Part shown: positions 41,815 through 57,325 of the stretch, piece after piece
How the letters are laid out: the number at the start of each line of letters is the position of its first letter
Position numbering within the stretch: the stretch's first letter is position 1
DNA from: a virus
Taxonomy: Duplodnaviria; Caudoviricetes
Direction: 5' to 3' (one strand)
IMG/VR virus record: IMGVR_UViG_3300043427_002668
DNA: 64,000 nucleotides
Notes under the pieces: model-generated
Told to the model about the DNA's origin: nothing
Seen by the model: the letters and a program-made list of their open reading frames with translations, nothing else
Databases searched by the model: none
Made by a program: the position numbers and the translations under genes

Positions 41815-43513
41815 AACTATTCGTTGGAAAAATTTTCTTTCTACAGGAAACCAATTTACGGAAGTTGACTTTACAAAAAATTCAACGAATCTTATTATTG
41901 GATCAAATGGTGCTGGAAAGAGTACAATTCTTGATACATTGACTTTTTCTTTGTTTGGGAAACCATTCCGTAAAATTAATAAACCGCAACTTATCAACTC
42001 TACAAATGATAGAGATTGTAGAGTTGAAGTTGAGTTTGATATTGGAAATATTTCTTGGAAGGTAGTGCGGGGTATTAAACCTAATATCTTTGAGATTTAT
42101 CGTGATGATTCTCTCTTAGATCAATCTTCTGCTGCTTTGGATCAGCAGAAATGGTTGGAGCAAAATGTTCTTAAAATGAACTATAAGTCTTTTACTCAGA
42201 TTGTGATTCTGGGTTCCAGTACTTTTGTTCCTTTTATGCAACTTCCTGCAGCTCATCGTCGTGAGGTGATTGAAGATTTGCTTGATATCAAGATCTTTTC
42301 TTCAATGAATAATGTAATTAAAGAAAAGATTCGTGCAGTTAAGGAAGAAATCAAAACTCTTGAACTGAAGAAAGAATCTCTTAATGATAAAGTTAAGATG
42401 CAAAAAGAGTTTATTGAAGAACTTGAAAATCGCGGAAAAGATAATATCAATAACAATAATCGGAAAATTTCTGATCTAATGTCTGAAATTGAACTTCATA
42501 TGACGGAAAATTCAGTTACCGAAGAAAAGGTATTTGAGTTTACTAAAGAGCAGGAGTATGTGACTGGTGCTTCCGATAAACTTCGTAAGTTAGGAAATCT
42601 CAAAGGAAAGATCTCTCAGAAAGTATCTACGATTACTAAAGAGCATAAGTTTTTCACTGAAAATACGGTTTGTCCTACTTGTACTCAAGAGATTGACGAG
42701 ACCTTTAGAATAAATAGAATTACAGACGCTCAAAATAAAGCAAAAGAGTTGCAATCTGGTTATAAAGAACTGGAGGAGGCAATTAAAGAAGAAGAAGAGC
42801 GAGAGCGTCAATTCCTTGCTCTCTCTAAGGAGATTACAAAACTCACAAATGAAATTTCTCAAAATAATATTAAGATCAATGGATGTCAACGACAAATCCG
42901 AGATCTTGAATCGGAAGTTCAAACTATTACCACTCAACTTGAAAACCGAAATACTGAACATGAGAAGTTAGAAAATTTCAGAAACAATCTCCAAACCACA
43001 TACGAAGAACTAGCCTCTAAAAAGGACTCAGTTAACTACTACGATTTCACTTATAGTTTGCTTAAGGACGGAGGAGTAAAAACTAAAATCATCAAGAAGT
43101 ATCTACCGCTGATAAATCAGCAAGTAAACCGTTATCTTCAGATGATGGATTTCTACATTAACTTTACTCTTGATGAGGAGTTTAACGAAACCGTCCAATC
43201 ACCTATTCACGAAGATTTCTCTTATGCATCTTTTAGTGAGGGTGAGAAAATGAGGATTGACCTTGCACTCCTTTTCACTTGGAGAGAAGTTGCAAGGTTT
43301 AAAAACTCAGTAAATACAAATCTCTTGATTATGGACGAGGTGTTTGATAGTTCACTTGATGGATTTGGTACAGAAGAGTTTCTCAAAATCATTCGTTATG
43401 TGATTAAGGATGCTAATATATTCGTCATTTCTCATAAGACTGGTTTAGAGGACAAATTTGAAAGCGTCATAAAGTTTGAGAAAGTCAAAGGTTTCTCGCG
43501 TATGGTGGTCTGA
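41801..43513 (+). CDS. gp46: Recombination ATPase gp46 (Rad50/SbcC-like)
   Basis: GSNGAGKS, CPTC zinc hook, FSEGE signature, LLIMDEVFD, ISH. Confidence 0.97.
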   Translation: MILFKTIRWKNFLSTGNQFTEVDFTKNSTNLIIGSNGAGKSTILDTLTFSLFGKPFRKINKPQLINSTNDRDCRVEVEFDIGNISWKVVRGIKPNIFEIYRDDSLLDQSSAALDQQKWLEQNVLKMNYKSFTQIVILGSSTFVPFMQLPAAHRREVIEDLLDIKIFSSMNNVIKEKIRAVKEEIKTLELKKESLNDKVKMQKEFIEELENRGKDNINNNNRKISDLMSEIELHMTENSVTEEKVFEFTKEQEYVTGASDKLRKLGNLKGKISQKVSTITKEHKFFTENTVCPTCTQEIDETFRINRITDAQNKAKELQSGYKELEEAIKEEEERERQFLALSKEITKLTNEISQNNIKINGCQRQIRDLESEVQTITTQLENRNTEHEKLENFRNNLQTTYEELASKKDSVNYYDFTYSLLKDGGVKTKIIKKYLPLINQQVNRYLQMMDFYINFTLDEEFNETVQSPIHEDFSYASFSEGEKMRIDLALLFTWREVARFKNSVNTNLLIMDEVFDSSLDGFGTEEFLKIIRYVIKDANIFVISHKTGLEDKFESVIKFEKVKGFSRMVV

Positions 43514-49644: not shown

Positions 49645-50094
49645 ATGGAACTCAACGGAATTACCTACAAACAATCAAAAACTTATCCAGACATTTATGT
49701 AAGTGCTTGTGGTAAAATTCTAAATGTAAAACCTATTGGAAGAGTTGATAAAAGAGATGGTTATGTTGTAGTTCGTGAAAAACGACTTCATCAACTTGTG
49801 GTAGAATGTTGGGGGGAACCAAGACCAAAAGGTATAGATTGGTGTATAGACCATATTGATGAAAATAAAACCAACAACAAAGTTGAAAACTTGAGATGGT
49901 TGCCTCGTTCAGAAAACACAAGAAGGTCTCAAATTGGAAAATCAAATCCAAGAAAAGCAGTAGTTCAAATGGAACCTGACGTGAAAGGAGAAATTATGAA
50001 TCTTTCCAGTCAGGGATTGTCCCAAAGACAAGTTGCTGATATTATGGGAAAAAGTCAAAAAAGTATTTGGAATGTATTAAATGGAGTTTATTGA
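49645..50094 (+). mobile_element. Free-standing HNH homing endonuclease (NUMOD4-like/HNH/HTH)
   Basis: DHIDENKTNNKVENLRW...EN HNH core; C-terminal HTH LSQRQVADIMGKSQKSIWNVL. Confidence 0.85.
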
Positions 50095-51038
50095 TGAGTG
50101 ACAATTTTTTGTGGGTGGAAAAGTGGAGACCAAAAAAAGTAGAGGATTGTATTCTTCCAGAGGATACTAAAAAAACTTTTTTGGACTTTATTAATAAAGG
50201 TGAAATTCCCAATCTACTATTGTCTGGTCCTCCGGGCATTGGGAAAACAACTATTGCCAAGGCACTATGCGAACAATTAGGAGCAGATTACTATGTCATC
50301 AACGGATCCGACGAAGGGCGTTTCTTGGATACTGTCAGGAACCAAGCAAAGAACTTTGCTTCGACCGTATCTCTTCAAGGAAATGGTAGGCACAAAGTCA
50401 TCATTGTGGATGAGAGTGACAACACAACCTCAGATGTACAACTCCTACTACGGGCAAATATTGAGGCATTTTATAGCAACTGCCGATTCATCTTCACTTG
50501 CAATTACAAGAACAAGATCATTGAACCTCTTCATTCCCGATGTGCCGTCATTGACTTCACCATCAAAGGGAAGCAACGGGTTCAACTTGCAGGAAGTTTC
50601 TTCCAACGTCTCCAAACGATCCTGGATCAGGAAAAGATTGAGTACGATCAAAAAGTCCTTGCTGAACTTGTATCAAAGCACTTCCCAGACTTTCGTAGGG
50701 TCCTTAACGAGTGTCAGAGGTACGCTACGGGAGGAAAAATCGACTCGGGCATTCTTGCATCTTTCTCAGACATCTCTGTAAATGAACTCGTCAAGAACCT
50801 CAAGGAGAAGAACTTCCCAGAAGTCCGTAAGTGGGTGGTCTCTAACTTGGATAACGATGCTTCTCATCTACTTCGCAGGATTTATGACGCCTCTTATGAT
50901 TGCCTTTCACCCCAATCTATCCCTGCTGCCGTTCTTGTTATTGCTAAGTATCAATACCAATGTGCGTTCGTGGCTGATCAGGAAATTAACCTCCTAGCGG
51001 CACTAACTGAAATTATGTGTGAGTGTGAATTCAAATGA
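50094..51038 (+). CDS. gp44: Clamp loader large subunit gp44
   Basis: LWVEKWRPK, GPPGIGKTT, IVDESD, LHSRC, DQEINLLA. The ATG overlaps the HNH stop. Confidence 0.96.
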   Translation: MSDNFLWVEKWRPKKVEDCILPEDTKKTFLDFINKGEIPNLLLSGPPGIGKTTIAKALCEQLGADYYVINGSDEGRFLDTVRNQAKNFASTVSLQGNGRHKVIIVDESDNTTSDVQLLLRANIEAFYSNCRFIFTCNYKNKIIEPLHSRCAVIDFTIKGKQRVQLAGSFFQRLQTILDQEKIEYDQKVLAELVSKHFPDFRRVLNECQRYATGGKIDSGILASFSDISVNELVKNLKEKNFPEVRKWVVSNLDNDASHLLRRIYDASYDCLSPQSIPAAVLVIAKYQYQCAFVADQEINLLAALTEIMCECEFK

Positions 51039-51889
51039 AATCTCTTAAGACACCCCTAAGGTATCCCGGCGGTAAGTCCCGTGCTTGTGTAAAGATGGAT
51101 CCTTACTTTCCAGATCTTCGTAACTATGATGAGTTCCGTGAACCATTTCTTGGTGGAGGATCTGTTGCAATTCATATTACAAAAAAATATCCAGATCTAA
51201 AGATTTGGGTCAATGATCTTTATCCTCCTCTTGTAATCTTCTGGCAACAACTCCAGATGTTTGGGGAAGAACTGAAAGAACATCTACTTCACTTCAAAAG
51301 TGTTTGCCCCAACCCAGAATCTGCTAGGGGTCTTTTTGATATCTCAAAGCAGATCTTAAATGATCCAAACACTGGTGATTTCGAACGTGCTGTGAGATTT
51401 TATATTGTAAATAAGTGTTCTTTTAGTGGTCTTACTGAAAGTTCTTCTTTTTCGGCACAAGCAAGTAACTCTAATTTTTCTGTTCGTGGAATTGAAAAAC
51501 TCCCCGAGTACTCTAAACTTATAGAACATTGGCGTATAACTAATTACTCCTATGATTATCTGATGGATGGAAACAAGGATGCTTTTATGTATCTCGATCC
51601 TCCTTATGATATTAAGGATAATCTCTATGGGAATAAGGGATCAATGCATAAAGGATTTGATCACGATAAGTTTGCTGCTGATTGCAATTCCAACAATATG
51701 GATATGTTGGTAAGTTATAATACGAATCAACTTGTTAAAGATCGCTTCTTAGGTGAAAAATGGAATGCTGCTGAGTTTGACCTGACTTATACGATGCGTT
51801 CTGTTGGTGAATATATGCGAGAGCAAAAACAAAGAAAGGAACTGCTACTTTTTAATTATGGAATTGAAGGATTGGTTGAACTCAATTAA
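51035..51889 (+). CDS. dam: DNA adenine methyltransferase (Dam/D12 class)
   Basis: LRYPGGKS, EPFLGGGSV, YLDPPY. Confidence 0.9.
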   Translation: MKSLKTPLRYPGGKSRACVKMDPYFPDLRNYDEFREPFLGGGSVAIHITKKYPDLKIWVNDLYPPLVIFWQQLQMFGEELKEHLLHFKSVCPNPESARGLFDISKQILNDPNTGDFERAVRFYIVNKCSFSGLTESSSFSAQASNSNFSVRGIEKLPEYSKLIEHWRITNYSYDYLMDGNKDAFMYLDPPYDIKDNLYGNKGSMHKGFDHDKFAADCNSNNMDMLVSYNTNQLVKDRFLGEKWNAAEFDLTYTMRSVGEYMREQKQRKELLLFNYGIEGLVELN

Positions 51890-52226
51890 TTTTACAAAAG
51901 AAGATCTGTCGGAAAATATCAAAGAATATCCTCCATTTATTATCAATAAATGCTTAGCGGGTCATATTGATTCTGTTCTTTTTGCTAATGAAATGAATAT
52001 GAATCATCATCTTGACAAAGGTATGCAATATTCGTTTTATCTAAATAGTCTAAGGAAACGGAAGAGATTTTCTCCCTGGCTCCGCAAGGATAAGATCACG
52101 GACTTAGAATGTGTAAAACAATACTATGGTTATAGTAATGAAAAAGCATCTCAAGCACTGAAAATCCTGACAAAAGAACAACTTACTTTCATTAAAAAAC
52201 GACTTGATATTGGAGGAACAAAATGA
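51858..52226 (+). CDS. gp62: Clamp loader small subunit gp62
   Basis: MELKDWLNSIN, YPPFIINK, LRKRKRFSPW, YYGYSNEKA; the true ATG is at 51858. Confidence 0.92.
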   Translation: MELKDWLNSINFTKEDLSENIKEYPPFIINKCLAGHIDSVLFANEMNMNHHLDKGMQYSFYLNSLRKRKRFSPWLRKDKITDLECVKQYYGYSNEKASQALKILTKEQLTFIKKRLDIGGTK

Positions 52227-52660
52227 CTACTACGGTAGAACCTACTGTTAATTGGTCTCAAGACCAAATGGTAGAGGTAATTCTTAATGAACCTGATGAC
52301 TTTCTGAAAGTTCGTGAAACTTTGACCCGAATCGGAGTCGCATCACGTAAAGAGAAAAAACTCTACCAATCTTGCCATATTCTGCATAAGCAGGGAAGAT
52401 ACTACATCGTTCATTTTAAGGAACTATTTGCTCTCGACGGTAAACACGCAAACCTTACAGTAAATGACGTTCAGCGTCGCAACCGTATCGCACGTCTTCT
52501 TTCTGACTGGGGACTGATTACAGTTGTAAAGGAAGATTCTGTATCTGATATTGCACCATTGAATCAGATCAAAGTTCTTTCTTATAAAGATAAAGGCGAT
52601 TGGATTCTGGAACAAAAATATAATATTGGTAAAAAGGGAAAGGGTGTAGAAACCGAATAA
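52223..52660 (+). CDS. regA: Translational repressor RegA
   Basis: DDFLKVRETLTRIGVAS, LYQSCHILHKQGRYYIVHFKELFALDG. Confidence 0.96.
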   Translation: MTTTVEPTVNWSQDQMVEVILNEPDDFLKVRETLTRIGVASRKEKKLYQSCHILHKQGRYYIVHFKELFALDGKHANLTVNDVQRRNRIARLLSDWGLITVVKEDSVSDIAPLNQIKVLSYKDKGDWILEQKYNIGKKGKGVETE

Positions 52661-52708: not shown

Positions 52709-52745
52709 AAAAAGAGGTTCGGTTTTTTCCGTACCTCTTTTTTTC
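52709..52745. terminator. Potentially bidirectional terminator hairpin after regA
   Basis: AAAAAGAGGT..CGG-TTTTTT-CCG..ACCTCTTTTT with a downstream T-run. Confidence 0.7.
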
Positions 52746-52767
52746 TTATCTTGTATAATTATATTAT

Positions 52768-52821
52768 GGATGCCGAGAGGGTCCACAAAACACAAACTCG
52801 CTTTAAAAAGGAGCTACCATA
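52768..52821 (+). promoter_or_regulatory. Structured hsp20 5' UTR, ROSE-like RNA thermometer candidate
   Basis: GNRA-capped hairpin 52768-52784, A/C-rich linker, then a CUC(G)CUU-UAAA-AAGGAG hairpin occluding the SD; TATAAT at 52754-52759. Confidence 0.65.
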
Positions 52822-53256
52822 ATGACTAACCTTTCACGATATACTACTGCGGATCTTTCTACTTTGTTGGATAAGATTACTCGCAACAGTATTGGAATGG
52901 ACGAATATTTTGATCGCCTATTCAATCTTCATGAAACTACCTCTAATTATCCGCCATACAATCTTGTTCAAGTAAGCAATGTAGAATCTCGCTTAGAACT
53001 TGCACTTGCCGGATTTAAGAAGGAGGAGGTTTATGTATACACAGAGTATGGAAAACTTTTTGTTGAAGGACAAAAGGAAGACCGAGAAACTGATACCCGC
53101 TACGTCCATAAGGGATTGGCTCAAAGAAGTTTTAAGAGAGCATGGACATTATCCGATGACACAACAATCAAGGATGTCACTTTCGAGGATGGATTGTTAA
53201 CTATTGTTCTTGGTAAGATTGTTCCAGAACATCATACTCGTAAAGATTATCTCTAA
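52822..53256 (+). CDS. hsp20: Small heat shock protein Hsp20
   Basis: NYPPYNL, LELALAGF, YVHKGLAQRSF, FEDGLLTI alpha-crystallin motifs. Confidence 0.96.
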   Translation: MTNLSRYTTADLSTLLDKITRNSIGMDEYFDRLFNLHETTSNYPPYNLVQVSNVESRLELALAGFKKEEVYVYTEYGKLFVEGQKEDRETDTRYVHKGLAQRSFKRAWTLSDDTTIKDVTFEDGLLTIVLGKIVPEHHTRKDYL

Positions 53257-53936: not shown

Positions 53937-54135
53937 AGAGGTAAGTGCTGATATTGGAGAACCTGACTGTAAGTTAGTTAAACCATTCACAGTCACTAAA
54001 GATAAAACATTAGAACCTTTCCTAATGGGTTATACTAAACAAGATACATTTATGATGAGTTCGGACAAGATTCTCACACTCTCTGATCCAACTCCAACAC
54101 TTCTTGAAAAATATGAGGATTTGATTAAGGAATGA
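53878..54135 (+). CDS. Conserved hypothetical protein, predicted Sm-like fold
   Basis: IKVLLLTNNQILITQI...LVKPFTV...EPFL; its stop overlaps the gp43 ATG. Confidence 0.7.
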   Translation: MKLIKVLLLTNNQILITQIEEVSADIGEPDCKLVKPFTVTKDKTLEPFLMGYTKQDTFMMSSDKILTLSDPTPTLLEKYEDLIKE

Positions 54136-55403
54136 GATTTTATACTAATGTTCAATTGATTGGAAATCAGTTTTTGGTTCGTGGGGTAGAAAATGGAAAA
54201 AGATTTGAAACAAGAGATGAGTTCTTCCCAACTCTTTATGTGAAAACTAAAAAAGATTCTAAATATCGAACATTAAGTGGCGAAGCAGTTGAACCAGTAA
54301 ATCCGGGAACAGTTCGTGACTGTCGTGAATTTTATAATAAGTATGAAAGTGTAGATGGATTTGAGATCTACGGAAATGACCGTTATATCTACCAATACAT
54401 TTCGGAAAAATATCCGGACGATGAAATTAAGTTTGATATCAGTAAAATCAAACTTGTAACTCTAGATATTGAGGTTGCATCAGAAGCAGGATTCCCTGAT
54501 GTAGAATCTGCATCTGAAGAAATCCTTTCTATCTCTATTCAGGATTATACAACAAAGAAGATTATTACTTGGGGAGTTAAACCATTCAATAACACCCGCA
54601 AGGATGTGACTTATCATCATTGCCCCTCTGAGTATGAACTTCTCAATCACTTCATCAATTATTGGATGGTGGATGTTCCTGATGTGATTACAGGATGGAA
54701 CATCCAGATGTATGACGTTCCTTATATCTGTAAGAGACTGAATCGTGTTCTTGGTGAGAAACTGATGAAACGGTTCTCTAACTGGGGACTTGTGACTGAG
54801 GGTGAAGTATTCATCAATGGACGCAAGCACACCACATTTGATGTAGGTGGTTTGACTCAACTTGACTATTTGGATCTTTATAAGAAATTTACTTATAAAG
54901 TTCAGGAATCTTATCGTCTAGATTATATTGCTGAAGTGGAACTGGGACAGAAAAAACTGGATCACTCTGAGTTTGATACATTCAAAGATTTCTACACCAA
55001 AGGATGGCAGAAGTTCATTGAATATAACATCATTGACGTAGAACTTGTTGACCGTCTGGAAGACAAGATGAAACTGATTGAACTTGCTCTGACGATGGCA
55101 TATGACGCAAAGGTGAATTATGCTGATGTGTTTTATCAGGTTCGTATGTGGGATAATATCATCTACACATATCTCAAGAAGAAGAACATTGTAATCCCCC
55201 CAAAGAACAAGACTAAGAAAGATGAAAAGTATGAAGGTGCTTATGTAAAAGAACCTATTTCTGGTATGTATGATTATGTTGTAAGTTTCGATTTGAACAG
55301 CCTTTATCCCCACCTTATTATGCAATACTCAATATCCCCAGAAACTCTTGTGAGTATGGATGATGTAAATAAGAGGATTGCAGAACTCGAAAGTATGCTA
55401 TAA
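54132..55403 (+). CDS. gp43: DNA polymerase gp43, N-terminal fragment (3'-5' exonuclease + motif A) with a novel C-terminal tail
   Basis: LDIE, TGWNIQMYD, YNIIDV exonuclease motifs; SFDLNSLYP motif A; ends ISPETL-VSMDDVNKRIAELESML*. Confidence 0.95.
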   Translation: MRFYTNVQLIGNQFLVRGVENGKRFETRDEFFPTLYVKTKKDSKYRTLSGEAVEPVNPGTVRDCREFYNKYESVDGFEIYGNDRYIYQYISEKYPDDEIKFDISKIKLVTLDIEVASEAGFPDVESASEEILSISIQDYTTKKIITWGVKPFNNTRKDVTYHHCPSEYELLNHFINYWMVDVPDVITGWNIQMYDVPYICKRLNRVLGEKLMKRFSNWGLVTEGEVFINGRKHTTFDVGGLTQLDYLDLYKKFTYKVQESYRLDYIAEVELGQKKLDHSEFDTFKDFYTKGWQKFIEYNIIDVELVDRLEDKMKLIELALTMAYDAKVNYADVFYQVRMWDNIIYTYLKKKNIVIPPKNKTKKDEKYEGAYVKEPISGMYDYVVSFDLNSLYPHLIMQYSISPETLVSMDDVNKRIAELESML

Positions 55404-55411
55404 TATAAATA
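55404..55411 (+). promoter_or_regulatory. T4 late promoter TATAAATA directly after the gp43-N stop; overlaps an extended -10 TGCTATAAT (55396-55404)
   Basis: Both motifs read directly from the sequence. Confidence 0.75.
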
Positions 55412-55430
55412 GGATATAGATAGTTTATAA

Positions 55431-55970
55431 ATGAAAAGAGAGTATCCTATGTATGTTTATCAATACAAAGATGATGATAAAGTTTTTTATGTTGGTATGG
55501 GGCAGGGGTATAGAATGTGGGCTCACTTAAAACCAAGTTCTTATATGCCATATGATGCAAATTATCCATCTTTCTATGGTAAAATAAAATCTATTTTTTT
55601 GTCGGGAAGAGAACCATTTGTTGAAAAGATTTTTGAGGGAACAAAAAAAGAATGTTTAGTCTTAGAAGAAGAACTTATTGAAAAGTATAAATTGATAAGT
55701 GAAGGTGGAACACTTTATAATATTTCAAAAAAAAGTGGTGGTAGAGTAAAAGGTAAATCATATCCTATGAGTGAAAATACCCGTCAAAGGTATAGAGAAA
55801 CTATGAGACAAAATAGAACTTATAAAATTGAAAGTGAAGATTTGAGAAAATTGTATATTATTGAGAATAAGACAAGGAAGCAAATTGCCGAACATTATAA
55901 TTGTAGTGAAGTATTGATTAAACAAAGATTAAAAGAGTTTGGTATTAAAAAAATTACTAAAATACTATGA
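55431..55970 (+). mobile_element. Free-standing GIY-YIG-type endonuclease inserted in the polymerase gene
   Basis: YVYQY...VFYVGMGQGYRMWAH (GIY-YIG variant), downstream E..E and LYN motifs, NUMOD3-like segment and C-terminal HTH. Confidence 0.8.
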
Positions 55971-57325
55971 ATAATAATATGTGGAAAGATGTTCGTCAAA
56001 TGTCTCCTCAAGAAATTAAAGAGGAATTGGAAGCACTTAAGAAAGTAAGAGAACTTTCTAATCAAGTGAATGTTGATAAACTTCTTAATCAAGAATTGGA
56101 TTTAGAACCTTTGCGAAAAGTCAATTTGACTATTACTGCAAACGGAGCACTTTATCGTAGAGTAAATGGTTTTCTTCCTGAACTGATGGAGAAGATCTAC
56201 AATGAACGTGTGATCTTCAAGAAGAAGATGCTTGCTGCAGAACAACAGTATGAGAAGACTAAAACAAAAGAGTTGGAAAAGGAAATTGCGCGATGTAATA
56301 ACATCCAAATGGCGAGGAAGATTCAGCTTAACTCTGCTTATGGTGCTATTGGCAATCAGTATTTCCGTTACTATAAACTAGCAAACGCTGAAGCGATTAC
56401 TCTTTCCGGTAAGGTTTCAATTCAGTGGATTATGAATAAGATGAACTCCTACATAAACAAAATTCTTAAAACAGATGGTGAAGATTATGTTATTGCTTCT
56501 GATACTGATTCTATCTATCTCAATATGGGTCCTTTGGTTGAAACTGTATTCAAAGGAAGAGAGAAAACTACTCAAGACATTGTTTCGTTCCTTGATAAGG
56601 TGTGTCAAGTGGAACTTGAAAAATATATTGAAAGTTCTTATCAAGAATTGGCGAATTATGTAAACGCTTACGATCAGAAGATGATTATGAAGCGTGAGTG
56701 TATTGCTGAACGTGGTATTTGGACTGCGAAGAAACGATACATTCTGAGTGTATGGGATAGTGAAGGTGTTCGATATGAATCACCCAAACTGAAAATCAAG
56801 GGTATTGAAGCAATCAAATCTTCTACTCCTGCTCCTTGTCGTAAGATGCTGAAAGAAGCATTTAATATTCTGATGAGTGGAAGTGAAGATGATATGATTC
56901 AGTTTATTGATGATTTCCGCAATAAATTTAAGAAATTACCACCTGAAGAAATCTCATTCCCACGTTCTGCGTCTGACGTTCAGAAATATACATCACACTC
57001 TCAAATTTATGTAAAGGGAACTCCGATTCATGTTCGTGGAGCACTTCTCTTTAATTATTATGTCAAAGAAAATAACCTGACTGGAAAATATTCTTTGATT
57101 CAGAACGGAGAAAAGATCAAGTTTGTTTACCTCAAGAAACCAAATACGATTCATGAGAATGTAATCTCATTTATTCAGGAGTTTCCCAAGGAACTGAATC
57201 TTGACAAATACATAGATTATGAATTACAATTTGAGAAAGCATTTCTAGAACCACTCAAAGTTATTCTTGATATTATTGGGTGGAATATGGAAAAGACAGT
57301 AAACCTTGATTCATTTTTTGCCTAA
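55967..57325 (+). CDS. gp43: DNA polymerase gp43, C-terminal fragment (fingers, palm, thumb) with a novel N-terminal extension
   Basis: KIQLNSAYG (motif B), SDTDSIY (motif C), KKRY, clamp-binding tail LDSFF; the ATG overlaps the endonuclease stop (ATGA). Confidence 0.95.
   Translation: MNNNMWKDVRQMSPQEIKEELEALKKVRELSNQVNVDKLLNQELDLEPLRKVNLTITANGALYRRVNGFLPELMEKIYNERVIFKKKMLAAEQQYEKTKTKELEKEIARCNNIQMARKIQLNSAYGAIGNQYFRYYKLANAEAITLSGKVSIQWIMNKMNSYINKILKTDGEDYVIASDTDSIYLNMGPLVETVFKGREKTTQDIVSFLDKVCQVELEKYIESSYQELANYVNAYDQKMIMKRECIAERGIWTAKKRYILSVWDSEGVRYESPKLKIKGIEAIKSSTPAPCRKMLKEAFNILMSGSEDDMIQFIDDFRNKFKKLPPEEISFPRSASDVQKYTSHSQIYVKGTPIHVRGALLFNYYVKENNLTGKYSLIQNGEKIKFVYLKKPNTIHENVISFIQEFPKELNLDKYIDYELQFEKAFLEPLKVILDIIGWNMEKTVNLDSFFA

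Follow-up and report, generated by a model that had tools for sequence, protein, structure and literature searches.

The leader of hsp20 in the phage DNA analyzed here, a stretch of 64,000 nucleotides that we refer to as the window, is likely a ROSE-type RNA thermometer that is homologous to the ibpA leaders of proteobacteria and was probably acquired along with the class A small heat shock protein (sHSP) gene it precedes. We infer temperature gating because the leader belongs to a family with characterized members, and by analogy with these members the output of phage Hsp20 is probably tuned by temperature. As far as its sequence places it, the leader is a phage-borne addition to the short ROSE-like thermometer class and lies outside the present Rfam boundary. 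The original prediction called the leader ROSE-like on the basis of a U(U/C)GCU motif opposite the SD sequence, a bulged G, and a downstream sHSP gene, and all of these are present and conserved. It also remarked that no such case was known to it for a phage sHSP. This agrees with the open-access literature, in which we found no paper containing both "RNA thermometer" and "cyanophage" (subscription journals were outside the search) and in which the papers on cyanophage sHSPs make no mention of promoters or untranslated regions.

The gene content of the window is that of a T4-like cyanomyovirus, and hsp20 belongs to the core gene set of T4-like cyanophages. A search of sequencing runs for the window listed freshwater DNA metagenomes with small shares and no RNA data set. 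Over the region from regA to hsp20, the closest named phages are Synechococcus phages DSL-LC03 and S-SRM01, with a DNA identity of only ~77%. The gene order is gp44 (50067-51038), a Dam-type methylase gene, gp62, regA, hsp20, small open reading frames (ORFs), and the DNA polymerase gene. The upstream neighbor of hsp20, regA (52223-52660, plus strand), encodes a translational repressor and was identified by Pfam Translat_reg (PF01818, 153.7 bits) and by the regA annotation in related phages. It is followed on the same strand by an intrinsic terminator at 52709-52745, formed by a stem at 52709-52742 and a U run. The predicted folding energy of the terminator was -16.4 kcal/mol (z = -5.9), and none of 200 shuffled sequences was equally stable. 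Relatives carry a terminator hairpin at the same place with a different sequence. The terminator after regA thus sets hsp20 apart as its own transcription unit. A promoter and terminator scan of the plus strand, using a scanner that demands a -35 box and a G+C-rich stem, found nothing.

The hsp20 gene (52822-53256, plus strand) encodes an IbpA-type (class A) sHSP of 144 amino acids that matches Pfam HSP20 (PF00011, 49.2 bits). Homologues are annotated as Hsp20 or IbpA in more than 500 phage records, and the NYPPYN motif of the window protein is common to proteobacterial homologues. The class A placement of phage Hsp20 is taken from PMC3827213; in that study, cyanophage sHSPs cluster with bacterial class A sHSPs, unlike the sHSPs of cyanobacteria.

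Two further features of the neighborhood were recorded. A D12-class N6-adenine DNA methyltransferase gene (PF02086, 93.6 bits) at 51035-51889 sits between the clamp-loader genes gp44 and gp62. The family B DNA polymerase gp43 (54132-57325 overall) is encoded in two ORFs, one at 54132-55403 with the exonuclease and the start of the polymerase domain and the other at 55967-57325. Between the two halves lies a GIY-YIG-like ORF at 55431-55970, whose match to PF22945 (24.4 bits) is slightly below the cutoff, and a homing endonuclease appears to have split the polymerase gene.

The architecture of the leader, all on the plus strand, agrees with the original prediction in each of its parts. A TATAAT box, described as starting at 52754, is read from the sequence at 52754-52759 as a -10-like element of a putative promoter. 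The predicted GGAUGCC-GAGA-GGGUCC fold corresponds to hairpin I at 52767-52785, a 7-bp stem with bulged G52772 and a GAGA tetraloop that is supported by folding and covariation. Its pairs are U52767-A52785, G52768-C52784, G52769-C52783, A52770-U52782, U52771.G52781, C52773-G52780, and C52774-G52779, and at 37°C the free energy amounts to -7.0 kcal/mol. The linker proposed to be unstructured is the single-stranded, A/C-rich 11-nt sequence CAAAACACAAA (52786-52796); over 258 leaders, linker composition was 61% A, 25% C, 12% U, and 2% G.

The candidate thermosensor is hairpin II (52797-52813), in which the anti-SD sequence CUC[G]CUU (52797-52803) pairs across a UAAA loop with the SD sequence AAGGAG (52808-52813). 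The predicted pairing of UCGCU (52798-52802) with AGGA was found as described, with G52800 bulged and the pairs C52797-G52813, U52798-A52812, C52799-G52811, C52801-G52810, U52802-A52809, and U52803-A52808. In this ROSE register, the calculated free energy rises from -5.7 kcal/mol at 15°C to -4.4 at 25°C, -2.7 at 37°C, and -2.0 at 42°C. The SD sequence was said to end 8 nt before the AUG; AAGGAG ends at 52813 and the AUG starts at 52822, leaving an 8-nt spacer (52814-52821) that is poor in G across relatives (1.9% G). The predicted transcription start site (TSS) is placed at ~52766, and hence upstream of the anti-SD sequence, because the -10-like box lies 5 to 7 nt before hairpin I. A transcript starting there would have a leader of ~56 nt. 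Both hairpins follow one design, with Y-[G]-C-Y on the 5' side over R-G-R on the 3' side and the G invariant in both. A protein may recognize this bulged-G design as a repeated motif, or the two hairpins may have a structural module in common.

In a single window, chance could account for the hairpin II motif. The pattern TCGCT-N3-8-AGGAG matched once in the window, at least one match was found in 25 of 100 shuffled sequences, and ~0.27 matches are expected per window. The folding energy of the leader is ordinary (z = -0.38). A second match of the motif type, TTGCT..AGGAG at 42816, falls inside a 570-amino-acid ORF and was rejected as a chance occurrence. The significance of the leader rests on its position and on comparison across homologues rather than on the motif in one window.

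For this comparison, 412 loci were gathered by Hsp20 protein with five divergent queries, at identities down to ~40%, together with 12 named cyanophages. This yielded 261 distinct 60-nt leaders, all of which contain the anti-SD/SD hairpin. The tallies for hairpin II refer to 259 parsed distinct leaders and those for hairpin I to 258; hairpin I was absent from only 1 of the 259, a leader with a deletion of the 5' arm. A covariance model, R1, was built from 39 of the phage leaders. In 89 of 90 diverse cyanophage sources, R1 gave exactly one match, which ended at the hsp20 AUG, and the sole miss was a source with only 17 nt upstream of the gene. The 64-kb window likewise contains one R1 match.

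Both helices covary and both bulged G residues are invariant (259 of 259 leaders for hairpin II and 258 of 258 for hairpin I), which bears out the expectation of the original prediction that the pairing is kept in homologues. In helix I, seven of nine pairs changed on both sides in alignment A2. The covariation score in this alignment was 0.279, compared to 0.137 for shuffled columns, with none of 500 shuffles as high and a score of at most 0.116 when the partners were slid. RNAalifold found the lower stem of helix I de novo, with compensatory changes in four of five pairs. In an anchored tally, pairs -4 to -1 below the bulged G were paired in all 258 leaders, each with three to six pair types; examples of the exchanges are GC 182/AU 33/UA 38 and UG 211/CG 30/UA 15. 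Most hairpin I loops are of the GNRA or UUCG type.

For helix II, the pairs were tallied in two MAFFT alignments of equal-length subsets, both free of gaps. Alignment A2 misplaces the 3' arm of hairpin II, and hairpin segments of unequal length were left-justified by MAFFT (alignment A4), so that equal-length subsets were used instead. The six core pairs were 98 to 100% paired in the two alignments, and since the subsets had been picked by a parse seeking this pairing, these counts lean towards that structure. In the first subset, the exchanges were CG 50/GC 8, UA 51/AU 6, CG 52/UG 5/UA 1, and UA 46/UG 6/AU 3, and in the second subset, CG 29/GC 20. The covariation scores of 0.230 and 0.203 were higher than those of shuffled columns (0.077 and 0.068; none of 500 as high in either case), a control that can be exceeded by related sequences without any structure, and slid partners scored at most 0.069. 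On the model-fitted alignment A2, in which the 3' arm is misaligned, hairpin II was missed by RNAalifold. Both arms of hairpin II are switched together by clade, as in GUC[G]CUU/AAGGAC, AGAC[G]CUU/GAGGUCU, and ACUC[G]CUA/UAGGAGU. The loop is free to vary in sequence and length. The anti-SD motif is UCGCU or UUGCU in nearly all of the 259 leaders and A(U/C)GCU in one clade.

Two groups of leaders depart from the common layout. In the S-RSM4 clade (L087 and L253-L332), only 0 to 1 nt separates the AUG from the hairpin II 3' arm (AAGGAC). This leaves the SD-like sequence too near the AUG for normal spacing, yet the helix is kept via compensatory C-G to G-C changes; hairpin II may act differently in this clade. 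The leaders of S-CAM1 and ACG-2014j (L090 and L091) and of relatives such as L275 carry an extra G+C-rich hairpin between the promoter-like box and hairpin I, giving three hairpins.

The promoter in front of the leader varies among phages. Among 258 distinct relatives, 103 had TATAAT, mostly ending 5 to 7 nt upstream of hairpin I. The T4-type late core TAAATA was present in 87 and ended 3 to 5 nt before hairpin I. Only three carried both. The promoter class differs even between close relatives, for example, L001 and L016. Promoter classes thus replace one another in front of a transcribed leader that persists, and this pattern in the sequences points to selection acting on the leader RNA. Given the positions of the boxes, the mRNA would begin with hairpin I, as it does in Pseudomonas. 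The timing of hsp20 during infection may differ between phages while the leader remains unchanged.

The relation of the leader to a curated thermometer family was examined with Rfam, whose ROSE models the original prediction had proposed for a search. ROSE_3 (RF02523) aligned to 52764-52827 over model positions 1 to 69, including both hairpins, with an E value of 4.8e-4, but the score of 29.5 bits is below the gathering threshold of 43 bits. The window leader and ROSE_3 have in common the GAU[G]CC...GGGUC core of hairpin I, ACUCGCU, AGGAG, and AUGAC. Four features of the short two-hairpin ROSE type are found in the window: a position in the 5' untranslated region of a class A sHSP gene, a U(U/C)GCU anti-SD sequence, a bulged G, and a more stable 5' hairpin. 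Weaker full-length ROSE_3 matches were obtained in 4 of 20 other phage loci, scores of 24 to 29 bits were recorded for other phage leaders, and the phage leaders overall scored 24 to 33 bits. Since they are below the ROSE_3 threshold, annotation based on Rfam would miss them. ROSE (RF00435) and ROSE_2 (RF01832) gave no match in the Rfam scans of the window and the other phage loci. Judging from these alignments, the phage element is a distant relative of ROSE_3 outside the curated Rfam boundary. When 151 genomes from the class that surrounds a Porticoccaceae MAG were searched with ROSE_3, nothing exceeded the cutoff.

The element is not confined to cyanophages. A scan of genome contigs based on the Hsp20 alignment yielded 64 loci that hold the closest class A sHSP genes of cellular genomes; the eight closest of these loci are probably phage contigs binned into MAGs. 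R1 matched ~50 of the 64 loci, always immediately upstream of the gene, with E values of 1e-14 to 1e-3. The positive taxa included complete Pelagibacterales chromosomes, Rhodobacteraceae, Burkholderiaceae, and Thiothrix. The same two hairpins were observed in SAR11/Pelagibacterales and other aquatic proteobacteria (L421-L476; for example, L429 at 329-388, L462 at 326-391, and L464 at 352-415). To our knowledge, the ibpA-type leaders of SAR11, Rhodobacteraceae, and Burkholderiaceae are uncurated in Rfam. ROSE_3 gave at most 33 bits on the R1-positive cellular leaders. Because proteobacterial leaders with the same element are below its threshold, the curated ROSE_3 family seems too narrow.

R1 also matched the hsp20 leader in each of the eight non-cyanophage phages examined, which were the pelagiphages Mosig, HTVC008M, HTVC103P, and HTVC115P, the Methylophilales phage Melnitz, C48C1, and the jumbo phages PA5oct and Atu_ph07. 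In L489 (OQ572409.1, "UNVERIFIED Pseudomonas phage Y7"), a Pseudomonas aeruginosa-type ibpA leader scored 69.2 bits with ROSE_3, and R1 matched the same interval (334-400). ROSE_3 thus matches the phage leader and R1 matches a true ROSE_3 leader, so that the relation is reciprocal. OQ572409.1 is an unannotated 22.6-kb record that holds ibpA and may be host chromosomal DNA, not phage.

By homology with tested members of the family, the leader would act as a zipper-type thermometer. At cooler temperatures, the weak 6-bp hairpin II would cover the ribosome-binding site. As the temperature rises, hairpin II would open gradually, 30S subunits would bind, and Hsp20 synthesis would increase without new transcription. 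At the 5' terminus, hairpin I may serve as a folding scaffold, protect the mRNA from decay, or both. Phage promoters would provide transcription; the window has the early-type TATAAT, and many relatives have the late TAAATA core. With phage promoters in front of a thermometer leader, the promoter would determine the timing in infection, and the leader would make expression temperature dependent. Two characterized leaders serve as precedents. In the short two-hairpin ROSE element of Pseudomonas ibpA, heat melts hairpin II, which suffices alone for control, and hairpin I is heat stable (Krajewski 2013, PMC3669281). The ROSE-like sHSP leader avalong of Anabaena is thermoresponsive in reporters, and deletion of the bulged residue locks expression off (Cimdins 2014, PMC4152365).

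Several points stand against the thermometer reading, among them that all of the phage leaders are below the Rfam threshold, that the predicted SD accessibility is flat, and that another register is preferred by folding. The hosts live at roughly 10 to 30°C, far under the heat shock range used in assays of bacterial ROSE elements. In a nearest-neighbor model, the mean unpaired probability of AGGAG stayed at 0.16 to 0.18 from 10 to 42°C, with no sharp melting. RNAfold applied to hairpin II alone favored the register GCUUU/GGAGC (-3.5 compared to -2.7 kcal/mol), which places this alternative ahead by 0.8 kcal/mol in the clade of the window; the SD sequence is masked either way.

In the main alternative reading, the ROSE-derived structure is real but works mainly independently of temperature, with thermosensing negligible at host temperatures. 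By analogy with IbpA, Hsp20 would repress its own translation, or the leader would be a constant attenuator with a 5' stabilizer. The flat accessibility from 10 to 42°C fits such control, and the Y-[G]-C-Y over R-G-R pattern of both hairpins resembles a repeated recognition feature. The arginine in G-x-A-x-R-x-F, R102 of the window protein, which we take to be the equivalent of E. coli IbpA R93, is invariant in 11 of 11 diverse phage Hsp20s. IbpA of E. coli, Cedecea, and Vibrio binds the ibpA 5' untranslated region and blocks its own translation, which requires Arg93, a residue common in alpha- and gammaproteobacterial IbpAs (PMC10474464). However, self-repression in E. coli adds to the thermometer and does not replace it, and hairpin II of Pseudomonas is a thermometer alone (PMC3669281). 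In addition, ROSE helices contain noncanonical pairs that are poorly handled by nearest-neighbor models. We regard control that is mainly temperature independent as unlikely. A combination of the two inputs is more doubtful still: in such a riboregulator, temperature would act together with phage Hsp20, which would bind both bulged-G hairpins via the invariant alpha-crystallin arginine, and translation would be freed once unfolded proteins titrate Hsp20. If this were true, marine and freshwater phages would sense how warm the infected cell is and also its proteotoxic state, and hsp20 would have carried the module along as it passed among cyanophages, pelagiphages, and jumbo phages.

The RegA protein of T4 recognizes A/U-rich stretches at the ribosome-binding sites of early mRNAs, and regA is directly upstream of hsp20 in the window and in many relatives. 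The leader could on these grounds be chiefly a RegA operator, through which RegA shuts off hsp20 translation later in infection, and A/U-rich sequence makes up the loop and the SD-AUG spacer of the window leader. However, the same leader precedes cellular ibpA-type genes without RegA and is also found where hsp20 is not beside regA, as in S-RIM2, P-TIM40, the pelagiphages, PA5oct, and Atu_ph07. The covariation pattern is that of a helix and not that of a protein site in single-stranded RNA, and the spacer around the AUG is unconserved between clades. An operator of this kind is very unlikely to be the main function of the leader.

Even less probable is that the conserved sequence is a DNA-level Pho box bound by PhoB. 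The sequence ATTCAAACTCGCTTAAATA at -31 of S-PM2d hsp20 was proposed as a putative Pho box, and S-PM2d hsp20 is among the genes responsive to P limitation (PMC10976474). This 19-mer, however, is the anti-SD sequence plus the loop of hairpin II, in which the loop part is free to vary and the anti-SD part covaries with the SD sequence. The site is downstream of the -10-like box and within the transcribed leader, and the same element occurs before ibpA-type genes in many unrelated bacteria and phages. Finally, an ordinary leader with UCGCU near its SD sequence by chance, to which the motif frequency of ~0.27 per window and the unexceptional folding energy would be no obstacle, can be set aside almost entirely, as both helices are conserved with compensatory changes across phages at only ~40% Hsp20 identity and the ROSE_3 matches are reciprocal.

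A ROSE-type thermometer, the preferred reading, has several implications. The conserved thermometer-type leader suggests that Hsp20 is wanted conditionally, when the cell is warm or proteins unfold. The leader would be a rare viral cis-acting RNA thermosensor taken from bacteria along with its gene. As the element is widespread in abundant aquatic phages, it would bear on the effects of temperature on phage-host dynamics. By the matches found here, the short ROSE-like class is also much broader than the Rfam family, extending to SAR11, other proteobacteria, pelagiphages, and jumbo phages.

Among known thermometers, the Pseudomonas ibpA ROSE_3 element (PMC3669281) offers the closest comparison. 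Both are two-hairpin leaders of ~60 nt directly before an IbpA-type sHSP gene. They share the GAU[G]CC...GGGUC core of hairpin I with its bulged G and, in hairpin II, the U(U/C)GCU-SD pairing with its bulged G, while the AUG is unpaired. The phage hairpin II is shorter and weaker, with 6 bp and -2.7 kcal/mol at 37°C, whereas the stem of P. aeruginosa is longer and clamped. The phage hairpin I is also shorter and has GNRA or UUCG loops. Early- and late-type phage promoters take the place of the sigma-32 promoter, and the phage element is found in viruses of cyanobacteria living at 10 to 30°C. The ibpA-type leaders of SAR11, Rhodobacteraceae, Burkholderiaceae, and others, which R1 matched with E values of 1e-9 to 1e-3, have the same two-hairpin layout, always ending at the AUG of the gene, but they are cellular.

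The classical ROSE element of alphaproteobacteria (RF00435) and ROSE_2 of E. coli ibpA (RF01832) have the anti-SD motif, the bulged G, and the gene class in common with the phage leader, but they are ~100 nt long with three or four hairpins. FourU thermometers differ in that the phage anti-SD sequence is CUCGCUU, with no UUUU opposite the SD sequence in the conserved register. The translation of lambda cIII mRNA depends on temperature through RNA structure, by means of two alternative structures, and is favored at physiological temperature. Like the lambda cIII thermosensor, the phage hsp20 leader would be, by analogy, a phage mRNA with structure-based temperature dependence. The two are unrelated in sequence and logic, however, and the cIII thermosensor controls no chaperone gene.

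The thermometers of the host phylum, Synechocystis hsp17 (PMC3074152) and Anabaena avalong (PMC4152365), are likewise SD-masking sHSP leaders. Avalong carries an anti-SD sequence that is ROSE-like, with a bulged residue, but this residue is a U, and its first hairpin is long. In contrast to the hsp17 type of cyanobacteria, the phage leader consists of two separate hairpins with the AUG outside the structure. Compared to the thermometers of cyanobacteria, the phage element resembles the proteobacterial type and not the host type.
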